A model generated the notes under the pieces. The model was given only the letters and a program-made list of their open reading frames with translations. It made no database searches and had not been told where the DNA came from. Position numbers and translations under genes: made by a program. A stretch of 64,000 nucleotides of DNA from Gekko japonicus (lineage: Eukaryota): assembly GCF_001447785.1 (NCBI RefSeq), contig NW_015177070.1, forward strand, positions 73,640 to 137,639, read 5' to 3'. Shown one piece after another: positions 106 through 62,680 of the stretch. The stretch's first letter is position 1. Each line of letters starts with the position of its first letter.

Positions 106-2620
106 ATAAGAGACGCCAGTGTTGGATCAGGCCAAAGGCCCATCCAGTCCAACACTCTTCTGTGTCACACAGTGGCCAGAAATACCAGGTGCCATCAGGA
201 GGTCCAGCAGTGGGGCCAGGACATTAGAAGCCCTCCCACTGTTGACCCCCCCCCCCCAAGCACCAAGAAGACAGAGCATCACTTGCCCCAGAGCCCCTAG
301 CTATACCTTGTGGCTAATAGCCACTGATGGACCTCTGCTCCATATGCTTATCTAATTCCCTTTTGAAGCCGTCCATGCTTGTAGCACCCACCACTTCCTG
401 TGGCAGTGAATTCCATGTGTTAATCACTCTTTGGGTGAAGAAGTACTTCCTTTTATCCGTTCTAACCCGACCGCTCTGCAGTTTCATGGAGTGCCCACGA
501 GTTCTTGTATTGTGAGAAAGGGAGAAAAGTACCTCTTTCTTTACCTGCTCTTTCCCATGCATAATCTTATAAACCTCGATCATGTCACCCCTCAGTCGTC
601 TTTTCTCCAAGCTAAAGAGCCCTAAGCGCTTTAACCTTTCCTCATAGGGAAAGTGTTCCAACCCTTTTATCATTCGAGTTGCCCTTTTCTGCACTTTTTC
701 CAAAGCTATAATATCCTTTTTAAGGTGTGGTGCCCAGAACTGCACACAGTATTCCAAATGAGGTCTCACCATTGATTTATATAGGGGCATTATTATATTG
801 GCTGATCTGTTTTCAATACCCTTCCTAATAATCCCCAGCATAGCATTGGCCTTCTTTATTGCAGTCACACACTGTCTCGACATTTTCAGTGAGTTATCCA
901 CTACAACTCCAAGATCTCTCTCTTGCTCAGTCTCTGCCAGTTCAGACCCCATCAATGTGTATTTATATTTAGGATTTTTGGCTCCAATGTGCATCACCTT
1001 GCACTTGGCCACATTGAACCCCATTTGCCATGTTGACGCCCACTCGCCCATCCTTGACAGATCCCCTTGGAGTGCCTCACAATCCTCACTGGTTTTCACC
1101 ACCCTGAACAACTTTGTATCATCCGCAAATTTAGCCACTTCACTGCTTACTCCCATCTCCAAATCATTAATGAACAAGTTAAAAAGCAGTGGACCAAGTA
1201 CTGATCCCTGCGGTACCCCACTGCTTACCACCCTCCACTGAGAAAATTGCCCACCTACACTCACTCTCTGTTTTCTATGAACTAGCCAGTTTTTGATCCA
1301 TAAAAGGACTTGTCCTTCTATCCCATGATTTTTGAGCTTACTTAGGAGCCTTTGATGAGGAACTTTATCAAAAGCTTTCTGGAAGTCAAGGTAAATAATA
1401 TCTATTGGATCCCCCTTGTCCACATGTTTGTTCACCCCCTCAAAGAACACTAACAGGTTAGTGAGACAAGATCTTCCCTTACAGAAACCGTGCTGAGTCT
1501 GCCTCAATAGGTTTTGTTCATCTATGTGCCTACTAATTCTTTCCTTAATAATGGTTTCCACCAATTTACCCGGTATCGACGTCAGACTGACTGGCCTGTA
1601 ATTTCCCGGATCTCCTCTGGAACCCTTTTTAAAGATGGGAGTGACATTAGCTACCTTCCAATCCTCAGGAATGGAGGCAGATTTTAAGGAAAGATTACAT
1701 ATCTTTGTCAGGAGATCTACAAGTTCACATTTGAGTTCTTTCAGAACTCTCGGATGTATGCCATCTGGGCCTGGTGATTTTTCAGTTTTTAAGTTGTCTA
1801 TCAGTTTTAGGACCTCCTCTCTCGTCACCTCAATCTGACTCAGGTCTTTCAACACCCCTCCTGAAATCAGTGGTTCTGGAGTGGGCAAGCACTTCTCATC
1901 TTCCACAGTGAAGACGGAGGCAAAAAATGCATTTAGCTTCTCAGCCATTTCCCTATCATCCTTCAATACTCCTTTTACCCCTTGGTCGTCCAAGGGCCCC
2001 ACTGCCTCCCTGGCTGGTTTCCTGTTTCTAATGTATTTGAAGAAAGTTTTATTGTTGGTTTTTACGTTTTTTGCTATATGCTCCTCATATTCCCTTTTTG
2101 CCTGCCTGACCTCAGACTTGCATTTTATTTGCCATAGCCTGTGTTCCGTTTTATCAGCCTCACTGTGACTAGCTTTCCACTGCTTAAAGGAATTCTTTTT
2201 ACTTTTTACAGCCTCCATTACTCTGTTTGTTAACCATGCAGGCTTTTTCCTATACCTTTTTGTGCCTTTCCTAACCTGCGGAATATATATTTTTTGAGCT
2301 TCTAGGATCGTAGTTTTAAATAGATCCCAAGCTTCCCCAATTGTTTTGACCCTTTCTACTTTTCCTTTCAGTTTCCTCCCCACGTGTCCCCTCATATCAG
2401 AGAAATTACCCCTTTTAAAGTTAAAAATGGTTGTGTGAGTCTTTTTGGCCAATTCTCTATTTGTACAAATGATGAACTCAACAACATTATGATCACTGTT
2501 TCCAAGCGGTGCAATCACTTTTACATCTCTCACCAGGTCTTGAGTGTTACTTAGGACCAAATCAAGGATCGCCTCTCCCCTGGTAGGTTCCGTGACCATC
2601 TGCTCCATAGCACAGTCAAG
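106..2620 (-). mobile_element. CR1 LINE, 5'-truncated, with uninterrupted ORF2 (end of APE endonuclease plus reverse transcriptase) and 3' UTR
   Basis: ORF 314-2716 contains TRGEAILDLVL..SDH (end of APE), NYRPVSLTS, YLDFQKAFDKV, GVPQGSVLGPLLF, FADD and a typical CR1 C-terminus (RTRGHSMKL..FTQRVINTWNSLP). The 3' UTR (106-313) is shared with copies at 18256 and 39835. The first ~30 aa of the ORF call come from an adjacent SINE. Confidence 0.95.
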
Positions 2621-35339: not shown

Positions 35340-36950
35340 CCCCTATAAATAGTTGTGCAGCCCAGAGTGTGTTCCCTTTGCCTCCCTCAGACCCTAACCC
35401 AATTTGCCAACGGACAGGCCTGCTGAGGCTTCCGGTTTGGCCGACGCCCGATAAAGACACTAAAGGTACGGCTCCGTGGATTTTTTGTGTGTGCGGCTAC
35501 TATCAGGATTTCTTAGCCATTGCTAACAACAACCTTCAACTTTCTAACCAATTTAACAGCTGGCAGTTGAAGTGCTGGCAGAAATCCCAGTTTGAAGAGA
35601 TAATAAGAGACAATAAGGATATTGCCTCGGCAATTACAGGAGAGAGAAATACATGCAAGTTGGGGAACTTCCCAGAGAAAACCTCATAATATACAGTTTA
35701 ATAGCCTATTGCTTTGGCTGTTGGAGACAAACATCAGAAAAGAGAGAATTTGATGATTAACACCTTAAGAGGGACTCCAATTTGCAAATGAAAGCAAGGG
35801 AGGTTCTATCATAAGAGACTGTTTGGCTGATATTGGAAACATGGGGAAGAAAAGAGCATTCACATTTGAGGAAGATAGCATTCCCCCTCAACCTAAGCAA
35901 ACTAGGCTAGAAGCCTTTTTTCCTATACCATCGCATCCAAACAAATATGAGTGCTTAGAATGCTTAGAAGCAGAGGCCGAGAGGCCAGCTACAACACAGA
36001 CAGCTGATGAAATAAAGGGACAGACGCCCCTTTGTAAATCACCACCTGTGACTGAGCAGATCTCTAATAGCTGGAAGGAGATGGAACTCTTAGCTCAGCA
36101 AACCTATTTGGTGGCAGAAACACTTAAGAAAATATTTACACTGCAGGAGAGGACGCTAGCTAAGCTAGAGGAATTGACAGATGCTGCCGTTGCTAAAAAA
36201 CCAAAGGGTTCCCTAAAGGACAATGAGACCTCACCTGGGCCAAAAAAAGCAGATTTTAGTATTAGATTCAAGGAGGCCAACAAGAAGGAACCCTTTTCAT
36301 TAATATACAATCCAAATTCCCTTGTACTGAATGTATACCCAAGGAGAGGGAGACTTATAGATTGGAGCAAGAAATGGAGAGCAATAGGCCATTTGGCAGA
36401 AATCACTGGACTCACTCCAAAAGCCATTGACCTAGTTGAGGTGGAAAGATTGGGGAATTTTATAAGGTTTGAACGTTTTCTTTTACATTTCCGCTCTAGA
36501 AAAATCCCATCCTATTTGATTACGCAAATCAATAGGCTGAATAAACTGGGCATTAGAATTCAAAGACACTTTAGAAATACTGTAAGACAAGAACTTTTCA
36601 GAGGCTACAAAATCAAAAAGCAGGAAATGCAGGAAAAACCTAGTGGACAAATTAACATAAAGACCTTGGAAACCAGAGTACCAGTCAAACCACTCAATTC
36701 TCAGGTTCTTCTGGATCTACCTGTTCCCTCTAATTTACCCTCACCTATGGAAATGCAGAGAAAAGGGATTCCAACAGATAATCTAGATGCTAAGACTGTT
36801 GCAGAAGACAACAGAGGAGAAAGGACAATCATGGGAAGCAGGGAACCCTTAGAAACGGGAGCAGAGATTGAGGCCAACCTTCTCTCTTCTTTCACAACAC
36901 TGCCCATAGAGGACCAGGATTCTATATTATGCCGGCTAGATACGTTGATC
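35340..36950 (+). mobile_element. 5' part of a LINE: 5' UTR plus ORF1-like frame (family uncertain)
   Basis: A-rich uninterrupted frame from ATG 35841 with basic N-terminus, NKYECL motif, coiled-coil-like segment and RRM-like basic region. No spliced structure is visible. Confidence 0.55.
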
Positions 36951-37423
36951 ACTTTCTCACAAGACAAGAACTCATACTTCAAGCAACATTTTCTTAGAAG
37001 AGCACTATTGAAAGTATGGGAAGAAACTAAAACACTTTTTAATACTAAAATGCCCAAATGCGTTTCACCACACGAAGCTTTTACTAATGCAAATTTATTT
37101 CAGAAAAAACTCATTGTACAGGTATGAAGATATGTTGAATAATAAAAACCAACTAAAGACAATAGAGAACCTCAAAAATCAAGATATGGATATGAATTGG
37201 TGGGAAAGAGCCAAATTAGAATCAAGATTTGTTAAAGATAAACAAATGGGTTTCTAAATGCTCTATGGTTCAATGGGCTCAAAATTTGGGCCATAATATT
37301 TATTTAGATCAGTGGTCTAAGATAAGGAAAACAAATATAAAAAATACCAAAGCAATTTCTTACAAAGAAAATATTTATAATATGTTTTATACATGGTTTA
37401 TTACACCAGAGAAATTATCTACA
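36950..37423 (+). mobile_element. L1 ORF2 C-terminal fragment, part 1
   Basis: HFLRRALLKVWE..SPHEA, MVQWAQNLGHNIYLDQW..KENIYNMFYTWFITPEKL are typical of squamate L1 ORF2. Confidence 0.85.
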
Positions 37424-39096
37424 TCCTTATTCTATTTTCAAGAGGTTTTTTTCTCTGTGCAGATACTTATTTCCACCAACAGGGGGCTCACTCTCCCCCA
37501 ACAGCTTTTCCTACATAGTCAGTAGACTTCCTGGGTTTGTAGAAAAATCCAAAAACTAAAAAAATCCCTTCAGGGACGGCTGAATTCTCCCCAAAACCTT
37601 TTGAAATGGCCTCTGCAGGGATCTGCTTCAGGCATCAAGGGTGAGAGATCAGAATGTGGGGGGGGGGCTTCTAACTGGCTCTGTCAGTAAAAGGGTGGGG
37701 GAAGGGCCCTTTCCAGGCCTATTTCAGCCTTTCAGGGAGGGAGGGAGCCTTGGGAACAGGCCTCACAAGAGTTGCCAGTGCCAGGCTGGGGGATTTCTAG
37801 AGATTTTGTGGTGGACTCTAAGAAGGGCTGGGTTTGGGAAGGGAGAGGCCTCAGAGTCCACCCTCCAAAGCAGCCATTTTCTGCAGGGAGACAGACCTCT
37901 GCTGTCTAGAGGCCAGTTGTAATTCTGGGGGGTCTCCAGGTCCCATTTGGAGGCTGGCAACTCTAGGCCTGGCAGTAGTCTAGGGTTGCCAGGTCCCCCA
38001 TGACTTGCATGACTCACCTAGCCTCGGCTGCTTGCTACCGTTCATCAGCAGCCACCCTATGAAAGCCAGTGAGGTGCAGCAGTTAGAGCTTCAAAGTAGG
38101 GTCTGCAAGACCCAGGTTCAGATCCCCATCTTGCAGTGGAAGCTGACTGCGTGATTTTGGACCAGTCACATATTTCAGCCTAACCAATCTCACAGGGTTG
38201 TGCAGATAAAGAGGAGGGAATAATGAAAGCTGCTTTGGTCTCCACTGTGGAGAAAGACTGTAATTTTCCTAGGTAGAGGCTGGGGGGTGGAGATGGAAAG
38301 CAGAAGACAGAGGGGCAGATAAAGGTAGGTTAGCTGTTGGTTGGGAAGGAAATAGGGTTGCCAACTCCAAGTTGGGAAATTCCTGGACATTTGAGGGGTG
38401 GAGCCTGGAGAGGGTGGGATTTGAGGAGGGGAGGAACTTTGGACTGGTGTAATGTCATAGACTCCACCCTCCAGTCATTTCCTCCACAAGAACCACCATT
38501 GCCAGCCTCCAGGTGAGATCACCCAGAGTTACAACTGTTTTCCAGGTGACAGAGATCAGTTTCCCGGGATAAAATGGCTGTTTTGGAGGGTTGAGTCTAT
38601 GGCATCATACCCTGCTGAGGCTGCTTGCCACCCCAAGCCTCACTGTCTCCAGGCTGTACCTTCAAATCTCCAGGAATTTTCCAACCTGGAGCTGGCAGCC
38701 CTAAGGTGAATTGATCTCTGTAGCTGGGAGATCCCTTGTGATTCCCAAACCGCTGCCACTGCTGCTGTGGGGGGGGGAGGAAGCAGGTTGGTGGCTAGGA
38801 GCACTGCTACCACTGCTGCTGCTGCTCTGCGGAGTGGGGGGTGAAGCAGAAGGAGGCTGGGAGAGTGATGGGGGCAGAAAGAGAGAGAAAGAGTGATGAA
38901 GTGGGGAGGCAGAAAAACAAAGAGAAAGATGACAGGTCAGAAAGAGAGAGGAAGTCACATGCATGGAGGAGAAATAGAGAGTAAGAAAAGGGGGGCAGAG
39001 GGGAGAAATAGTGTGAGAGAGGCAGGGGTGAGGAGAGGAAGCAAAGGTGTGATGAATTAGATAACCATCCCAAAGTTTCTTGTGGGTCTCCACTTG
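37424..39096 (+). mobile_element. Putative non-autonomous Helitron inserted in L1, carrying SINE fragments
   Basis: A|TCCTTATTCTAT...CCCAAAG-TTT-CTTGTGGG hairpin, TCTCCACTTG|T. No TSD. Exact removal restores the L1 frame PEKLST-FYPNMSNDCWKC. Confidence 0.7.
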
Positions 39097-39820
39097 TTTT
39101 ATCCTAATATGTCAAATGATTGCTGGAAATGTCAAAAAAGGTTGGTTCTTTTTTCATATGTGGTGGAGTTGTGAGAAAAGGAAAAAGTTTTGGACTTGGT
39201 TATATGAAATATTGCAAAAAAATTAAAAAGTAATATACCCTTTGTACCAGAATTGTTATTATTGAATATACTTCCAGAAAATTGTAAAAAGCAAGATTCT
39301 TATCTCATTGTACATGCTAGAATATTATATGCTAAATATTGGAGAAGGAAGGAGATACCTTCTAAAGAAGAAATAATAAACAGACTACTCGAAACTGCTA
39401 TAATGGACAAATTAACTTTAATTTTGAAAGGGTATAAAGAGGAAAACTTTGAAAATACATGGTCAAGACTTTACAGTTGGATTGAAGAATACATTGAATG
39501 AAACGTGAATACAACCGAAATAGAGGACAATGAGAAAATCTATATTAAATTATGTAAAAGGTATAGTTAACATGTTTTATATTGGCTTATGCCTCCTGTA
39601 AGCCGCCCTAAGCCCGTGTAGTGGGGAGGGTGGGGTATAAATTGAATAAAATAAATAAATAAATAAATAAAACATTATAAGATGTAGAAACATACTTTTA
39701 TTGAGAGATGTATGGACAACTTAATAGTCAACTCAAAGACTTGGAGATTCTCCCATTGAATGTTTGTATGTATTATTGTTTGTTTTTGTTCGTTTGTCTT
39801 TATTATAAAATAAAATACTT
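39097..39820 (+). mobile_element. L1 ORF2 C-terminal fragment, part 2 (CCHC knuckle) and 3' UTR
   Basis: CWKC..FFHMWWSC, ARILYAKYWR and an A-rich tail. A short L2/SINE-type tail is nested at about 39595-39672. Confidence 0.88.
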
Positions 39821-39834
39821 ACTGGGGGGGGAGA

Positions 39835-40272
39835 GATAGAAGTACTTTTCTCCTTTTCTCACAATGCAAGAACTCGTGAGCACTCAATGACATTGCTGAG
39901 CAGTCAGGTTACACCGAATAAAAGGAAGTCCTTCTTCACCCAAAGAATGATGAACACATGGAATTCACTGCCACAGGAGGTGGTGGCAACTACAAGCATG
40001 GATGGCTTCAAGAGGGAATGGGATAAACATATGGAGCAGAGGTCCATCAGTGGCTCTTAGCCACAAGGTATAGATAGGAACTCTCGGTCTGGGGCAAGTG
40101 ATGCTCTGTATTCTTGGTGCTGGGAGGAGGGCAACAGTGGGAGGGCTTCTAATATCCTGGCCCCACTGCTGGAACTCCTGATGGCCCCTGGTATTTTTGG
40201 CCACTGTGTGACAGAGTGTTGGACTGGATGGGCCATGGGCCTTACCCAACATTGGCTTCTCTGATGCTCTTA
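39835..40272 (+). mobile_element. CR1 3' end fragment
   Basis: Reverse-complement match to 106-540. Confidence 0.9.
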
Positions 40273-62489: not shown

Positions 62490-62680
62490 TCTACGCATTT
62501 ATTAATTTCCTTCATTTCCCTCCAGTGAGGATCCCAGTAGCTTACATGGTTCTCCTGTCTTCCATTTTACCCACACAATAGCCCTGTGAGGTAGCTTAGG
62601 CTGAGATTATGTGGCTGGCTCAAGGTCACCCAGCGAGCTTCCACAGTAGAGCAGGGATTTGAACCTGGGTCTCTGAACAC
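62490..62680 (-). mobile_element. Older MIR/Ther1-like SINE
   Basis: ccattttacc..ccctgtgaggtag..caaggtcacccag..gggatttgaacctgggtct; a similar copy lies at about 17420-17640. Confidence 0.75.

Follow-up and report, generated by a model that had tools for sequence, protein, structure and literature searches.

A CTTG-ending non-autonomous Helitron in a gecko L1 remnant and the lineage-specific target motif of its family

Introduction

Helitron-like elements comprise the canonical type HLE1 and the type HLE2 (Helitron2/Helentron), both defined in PMC11417382. Like the element described here, canonical HLE1s such as bat Helibat1/Helraiser with HelibatN1-3 (PMC4778049, PMC5876387; structure 7lcc) possess a 5' TC and a subterminal hairpin, insert between A and T without target site duplication (TSD), and lack terminal inverted repeats (TIRs), and in the Helraiser system, too, non-autonomous copies far outnumber their parents. 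The Helraiser HUH nuclease nicks single-stranded DNA at the element's left terminal sequence (LTS) and stays on the 5' end, the helicase peels off one strand until the hairpin ends the run and a circle forms, and a tyrosine-catalysed strand transfer into A|T follows that leaves no TSD (PMC4778049, PMC5876387). HLE2s likewise move by the rolling-circle route with a Rep/Hel parent, but they carry short TIRs and use T|T targets (PMC11417382), neither of which is found at the present locus. Whereas the whole gecko lineage, parents included, ends in CTTG, CTTG is described for Helraiser solely in deletion constructs, where it served as an alternative end, and it has been noted in maize (PMC4778049).

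With regard to target choice, passages on Helraiser describe an AT dinucleotide and a general AT-richness downstream and report no defined motif (PMC4778049, PMC5876387), those on wheat and silkworm Helitrons give an AT target or nothing further (PMC13286980, PMC3789558), and those of the Replitron paper name only AT or TT for Helitrons (PMC10288648). Barley Helitrons (Wicker et al., 2017; PMC5738225) show a one-sided AAA 8 bp downstream of A-T, the same distance as found here; in that study families were pooled and no link to the left end was drawn, whereas the two lineages described here differ in their motif, which in either case recurs in the LTS of the lineage concerned. In Fusarium, nested copies and multiple 5' termini, which resemble what is seen in the gecko, were ascribed to self-insertion, although those elements are non-canonical (Helitron2-like) with inverted repeats, and the passages give no target mimicry as a cause (PMC5148889). 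Anolis Helitrons, especially the composite Helitron-2N3_AC, are by their description similar to the gecko family in length (1.3-2 kb), copy number (up to >1000), low divergence, and captured fragments of SINEs and other repeats; they are, however, described as internal deletions of their parent, whereas most of the interior here is without parental match (PMC3014272). In the literature passages searched, no statement was found on lineage-specific targets that mirror the LTS. The element itself is of a known kind, and it is the lineage-specific target rule, an addition to the original prediction for this locus, that is worth following.

An exact insertion in an L1 remnant

The window, i.e., the whole stretch of 64,000 nucleotides of Gekko japonicus DNA that was analysed (contig NW_015177070.1), contains a complete non-autonomous Helitron copy of 1673 nt within the remnant of a LINE which, from its peptide motif, we take to be an L1. 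The host and the ends of the insert comprise the following features:

36974..37423, + strand: host L1 ORF2 remnant to the left of the insert, broken
37424..39096, + strand: complete non-autonomous Helitron copy
37424..37595, + strand: LTS, with TC after the host A and CTATT at +9
39069..39086, + strand: subterminal hairpin, in the family an 8-bp stem with a TTT loop, here with a 1-nt deletion
39093..39096, + strand: terminal CTTG (not CTRR), common to the Rep/Hel elements L100-L101 and L106-L107
39097..39108, + strand: target motif in host L1 DNA, with T at +1 and CTAAT at +8, kept in empty paralogues
39097..39573, + strand: end of host L1 ORF2 with the CxxC...H...C knuckle of its paralogues, and start of the 3' region

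The left host flank ends in TTATCTACA at 37423 and the insert begins with TCCTTATTCTAT at 37424; its last letters are GGGTCTCCACTTG, at 39096, after which the right host flank opens with TTTTATCCTAAT. The junctions thus read A|TC and CTTG|T, without target duplication, and coordinates and letters are those originally given. A search with the right L1 flank yielded 15 loci, and 12 of the 14 non-self loci span the junction. All 12 represent the empty site exactly to the base, with no base lost or duplicated (ten read A|T and two G|T), so that the insertion is exact, between A and T. Because of a shared T, 37425-39097 would be formally equivalent to 37424-39096; other copies of the element fix the latter. 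The L1 flanks have a GC content of about 28-30%, which steps up to 48-57% within the insert.

Removal of the insert had been predicted to restore the L1 frame exactly. The join is indeed exact in all 12 paralogues, in which the peptide over the empty junction is mostly LSK-FYP (LST-FYP in the present host), but the frame is continuous locally only, and the host L1 is broken on both sides of the insert: it contains stops, about 100 nt are deleted near 37256, and the frame is lost a few codons past the insert. Positions 39097-39480 are 84-90% identical to the best paralogues, and a Pfam scan of the piece 39223-39498 identified no family.

Some further observations concern the surroundings. At 35700-36974, an L1 ORF1-like frame is fused directly to the last part of ORF2 near 36974, and, judging from read depth, the ORF1 part may have about a dozen close copies and the ORF2 part next to it only one or two. 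The L1 3' region is interrupted at 39575-39671 by a short SINE-like tail that includes a TAAA run and is lacking in the paralogues. Another locus, L002 (G000:C3404:456894-460090), is 99.9% identical to 36949-37709 including the L1/Helitron junction, after which it runs into an N gap; it differs upstream of this match, and candidate explanations are an allelic haplotig, a duplicated segment, and an error of assembly. In eight public runs on 36300-39900, no joint from 37423 to 39097 occurs among the joints listed; with a raw depth of about 1 per locus and a signal masked by repeats, this speaks neither for nor against an empty site.

The ends of the insert and the family that shares them

Among the HLE1 features, a 5' TC, insertion into A|T, and, in the family, a short hairpin about 10-15 nt from the 3' end are all present, whereas CTRR is not; since CTRR is the only tested feature that is missing, the element is filed as a variant of the canonical Helitron. 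The hairpin had been placed 10 nt before CTTG. It does exist, but those 10 nt include CTTG itself, and 6 nt lie between the two. The commonest family variants possess a perfect 8-bp stem, and in the window copy the hairpin folds no better than shuffled sequences (z -0.35) because its left arm has lost 1 nt. The longest stop-free frame of the copy is at most 131 codons, no tandem array is present within the insert, and among the 18 inverted pairs listed none links the two element ends. Other classes of insert are rejected by its ends, i.e., an intron (no GT-AG on either strand), a long terminal repeat (no TG...CA ends), and a retrocopy (neither poly-A nor TSD).

The ends are shared widely. The exact 5' 21-mer occurs in 107 copies and the exact 3' 20-mer at 851 loci genome-wide, and reversed-pattern controls for both gave 0 matches, so that the sharing is not due to chance. 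With the first 197 or the last 167 bases, about 1,680 candidates each were obtained, the 40 that were scored being 95-100% identical. The 3' end is common to several subfamilies, many of which start with TCTATATATCTAAT. Homology among copies stops at the element ends, and CTTG is not exceeded. The insert is preceded by A in 31 of 33 distinct left flanks (by T in one), whereas T opens all 118 distinct right flanks. Among the 18 two-ended copies (1168-1679 nt), 14 are without TSD, three show a TA match, and one a TATATA match in a TA run; poly-A tails were absent from the family copies examined. Together with the 12 empty paralogues and with Rep/Hel elements that end in CTTG, these results bear out the proposed non-autonomous Helitron with a variant CTTG end, its lack of TSDs, its A|T site, and its shared termini. 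That some other process, such as repair-templated insertion, had placed DNA with Helitron-like ends here by chance could draw on the poorly folding hairpin and the missing CTRR of the window copy, yet these ends recur in hundreds of copies with exact A|T junctions, and elements that share the 3' end contain Rep/Hel genes, which leaves such an origin a negligible probability, and the insert is almost certainly a Helitron.

The best-scoring copies differ by 2-3% from the majority base, and this figure, like the 84-90% identity of the host L1, is biased toward close copies; with this bias on both sides, the divergence figures fit a Helitron that is younger than its host L1. Head-to-tail junctions occur among the flanks, and 10 of the 118 right flanks are true Helitron starts. 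One copy (L026) sits exactly where a parent-type 3' end meets a parent-type 5' end, at G|T rather than A|T, and represents either an insertion into a head-to-tail junction or a mixed concatemer. A variant with a 473-nt deletion (38404-38878) appears in 6 of 8 public runs. Contigs of two other organisms hold pieces at least 92% alike to both element ends, and the family is thus not confined to this species.

Interior cargo

Four copies (L004, L009, L039, and L052) align to the window copy over nearly their full length with 91-92% identity, and every 50-nt bin is common to six gap-free copies. As the interior is common to the copies, its mosaic cargo predates the amplification of the family. It consists of the following pieces:

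37767..37965, + strand: decayed small TIR-bounded repeat, common to family copies, hAT-like by the 8-bp TSDs of other copies
38062..38255, + strand: SINE-like fragment, 77% identical to window 62582-62672
38353..38703, + strand: complete TIR-bounded repeat of 351 nt, without intact 8-bp TSD here
38760..39045, + strand: GA-rich subterminal region with almost no matches in the unrelated loci tested

The boundaries 38353 and 38703 stand as free ends in four other runs. Intact 8-bp TSDs, as in hAT-like elements, flank 10 of 31 copies of the TIR-bounded repeat, although about seven of these ten represent one site carried by another Helitron family. The interior had been predicted to be a mosaic of SINE pieces and GA-rich sequence; one SINE-like piece (presumably a SINE) and the GA-rich end were found, but most of the cargo is the TIR-bounded, hAT-like repeat rather than SINE. 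It had also been proposed to be captured or nested. Nesting in the window copy alone is ruled out by family-wide sharing; the cargo was either captured by an ancestor or inserted into one.

Rep/Hel parents and a second lineage

Pfam PF14214 gave 34 matches, and the best 10 of these 34 were extended by 10 kb on each side. In two of these ten Rep regions (L100-L101 and L106-L107) a CTTG end follows the Rep/Hel gene, while the other eight are without it, and one of the two also possesses a TC start after A about 7.5 kb upstream. Their frames are broken, yet HUH, two tyrosines (Y2), and PIF1 motifs are present, Pfam assigns Helitron_like_N (E 1.3e-59) and PIF1 (E 1.2e-55), and Helraiser 7lcc is the sole PDB match to the Rep region (E 1.6e-112). 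In the three frames scanned, Pfam detected no endonuclease family, and the middle parent frame matched no family at all. The window copy shares its last 16-19 nt with the CTTG parent, and its LTS aligns, with gaps, over about 140 nt to the LTS of L106-L107, so that the expectation of a Rep/Hel parent with shared ends is borne out, the 3' end being the same and the 5' end related, by elements whose genes are broken. Most of the interior is without match in the parent, the start TCCTTATT occurs in none of the parents found, and none of the best 10 regions extended contains an intact parent gene. Judging from the shared ends, the enzyme that moved this subfamily was likely the Rep/Hel of the CTTG parent. 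Within L106-L107, a second, internal LTS-like sequence about 2.1 kb inside, just before the Rep/Hel gene, also aligns to the LTS of the insert.

A second lineage in the same genome ends in CTAG, with 2583 exact ends, and starts with TCTCTCCCTTAT(A/T)ATAA. The Rep regions of lineage 1 (CTTG) and lineage 2 (CTAG) are about 40% identical. Members of lineage 2 (L206-L275; Rep/Hel example L098-L099) carry the same TIR-bounded repeat that is found as cargo in the window copy, and in several cases the 8-bp TSD of the repeat is intact. A third type of Helitron-like 3' end, closing with GGCTAG, is seen in the right flank of L211, where a lineage-2 copy lies about 60 nt before it, and in L112-L113.

A strand-oriented target motif that differs between lineages

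Insertions of both lineages are followed, in host DNA, by a strand-oriented motif (C/A)TAW at +7 to +9. The motif was first seen in early right flanks, where the panel was fixed, nine patterns being tried, and 60 further loci were then fetched in list order. The 10 flanks that are Helitron starts were dropped, leaving 108 non-LTS flanks, among which at least L044 is still a Helitron start and two pairs lie in shared repeats. CTAW starting at +6 to +10 is present in 51 of the 108 (8.3 in composition-preserving shuffles), i.e., in 23 of 50 early flanks (shuffle mean 3.8) and in 28 of 58 later ones (mean 4.5, maximum 13 in 2000 shuffles), against a background of 3% at +6 to +10 and of 4% at AT-rich background sites. 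Reverse-complement motifs are not enriched in the right flanks. Genome-wide, T-N5-7-CTAW lies 3' of 419 of the 851 lineage-1 ends and of only 54 of the 2583 lineage-2 ends, background AT sites giving 1.9%. Conversely, ATAW was found in 69 of 74 sampled lineage-2 flanks versus 39 of 108 from lineage 1 (Fisher 5e-16).

The LTS of lineage 1 holds CTATT or CTAAT and that of lineage 2 holds TTAT(A/T)ATAA, so that the target motif of each lineage occurs in its own LTS. The correspondence is incomplete. About half of the lineage-1 targets are without CTAW and about a quarter without (C/A)TAWW, and since lineage 1 also uses ATAW, the dissociation is complete one way only; two Rep-coding lineage-2 elements have CTAAT at +4. 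The register differs as well: most targets have the motif at +7/+8, the LTSs of lineage 1 at +9/+10, and those of lineage 2 at +10 to +14, and CTAW at +10 occurs in 0 of 108 non-LTS flanks. The comparison covers two lineages only, and time has filtered the old insertions; where a motif is short and both it and the LTS are AT-rich, a likeness can also arise by chance.

One might suspect that the downstream motif consists of left-end remnants of head-to-tail arrays or nested Helitrons and not of target DNA, given the 10 true Helitron starts among 118 flanks and the copy at a 3'-end|5'-end junction (L026). Helitron-start flanks were, however, dropped before counting; similar non-LTS pairs among the 120-nt flanks are limited to two shared repeats and TG runs; and empty L1 and CR1 sites carry the motif, which refutes such remnants at these sites and identifies the motif as target DNA. 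We therefore regard this origin as highly improbable, and targeting is very probably guided by the motif.

A hot spot in a CR1-like LINE

A recurrent flank of lineage 1 corresponds to one base in the 3' end of a LINE that, from its peptide, is presumably a CR1, and whose sequence shares TATCTAATTCC with the parental LTS. At this base, 58 lineage-1 insertions were counted versus three of lineage 2 (a contrast based on slightly different end patterns which may partly reflect age), where about 1.7 would be expected if all CTAW sites were equal. It is the strongest hot spot found, and it matches the parental LTS over 11-12 nt. The elements at the CR1 site vary in length and in LTS and thus represent independent insertion events. 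Exact empty copies of the site number 25,594, and within CR1 the comparison of filled sites (CTA in 56 of 58) with empty ones (93 of the first 100 listed; p 0.49) is uninformative. The window also contains two empty CR1-like copies of the hot spot, one at 329-373 (+) with CTAAT and one at about 40001-40045 (-) with CCCAT.

How targets may be chosen

The reading that we consider probable as a whole is that a protein-less Helitron was likely moved by the Rep/Hel of the CTTG parent, which likely picks targets that look like the LTS. The motif of a lineage would resemble its own start because the enzyme likely reads a target as it reads that end. Extending the route described for Helraiser, the enzyme would treat the target as a pseudo-left-end when nicking it and would hold the strand 3' of this cut in the binding site that reads the LTS, and insertion would amount to an exchange of strands between the junction of the circle and a sequence resembling the LTS. 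A flexible single strand might absorb the register gap of 1-3 nt in lineage 1, and less easily the larger one in lineage 2. Such pseudo-left-end nicking would explain the lineage-specific motifs, the CR1 hot spot, and the frequent insertion at Helitron starts. That target and LTS are read in the same binding site is a step to which we incline with some reserve.

The resemblance to the LTS may instead be incidental, both sequences being AT-rich, in which case this would be an ordinary Helitron whose enzyme has a general preference of its own for AT-rich DNA about one helical turn downstream, contacting the double-stranded target at a second site. Such a preference accords with barley Helitrons, which favour AAA 8 bp downstream and for which binding one turn away was proposed (PMC5738225), with the AT-rich 3' flanks preferred by Helraiser (PMC4778049), and with the position +7 to +9 that both lineages keep whatever the spacing in their LTS. 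The motif goes beyond AT-richness, however, as 51 flanks stand against 8.3 in shuffles and 4% at AT-rich background sites, the C that distinguishes lineage 1 is the C of its LTS, and the strongest hot spot matches the parental LTS over those 11-12 nt, and we consider a mere AT-patch preference rather unlikely. In IS200/IS605 elements, target selection is directed by the transposon. By analogy with such HUH systems (IS608-type), the motif could be recognised by a guide within the element that base-pairs with it, and would then change with the donor sequence and not with the enzyme; between the lineages the motif and both ends vary jointly, so that the effects of element and enzyme are confounded, which leaves some room for such a guide. 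No conserved complement of the motif was seen by eye beside the 3' hairpin in the copies viewed, and subfamilies with different LTSs insert at the same CR1 base, so that guidance by element DNA appears very unlikely.

Reading of the target as a left end by the Rep/Hel enzyme could have consequences beyond this family. The general form of the proposal, i.e., that each Rep/Hel lineage nicks host DNA resembling its own left end, is tentative, and we place it slightly below an even chance. If it holds, the target rule of a family would be predictable from its first 15-20 bases and changeable via the end-reading site, and one principle would underlie A|T targeting, the asymmetry downstream of it, self-insertion, the occurrence of multiple 5' ends, and hot spots within other repeats. 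It would also account for the clustering of Helitrons at the starts of other Helitrons and at a single base of a common LINE, and would bear on the integration sites of Helitron-based gene-delivery tools. The idea lends itself to a direct test, as this genome holds two lineages whose strand-oriented motifs differ, each echoing the left end of its lineage. For annotation, the lineage-wide CTTG end means that searches requiring CTRR would miss these elements.

At four loci (L044, L163, L280, and L287), insertions seem to lie 2-3 nt inside another Helitron start or to carry extra TCA units before the LTS. This pattern is as expected for self-insertion in the +7/+8 register, and it could give rise to new 5' ends.
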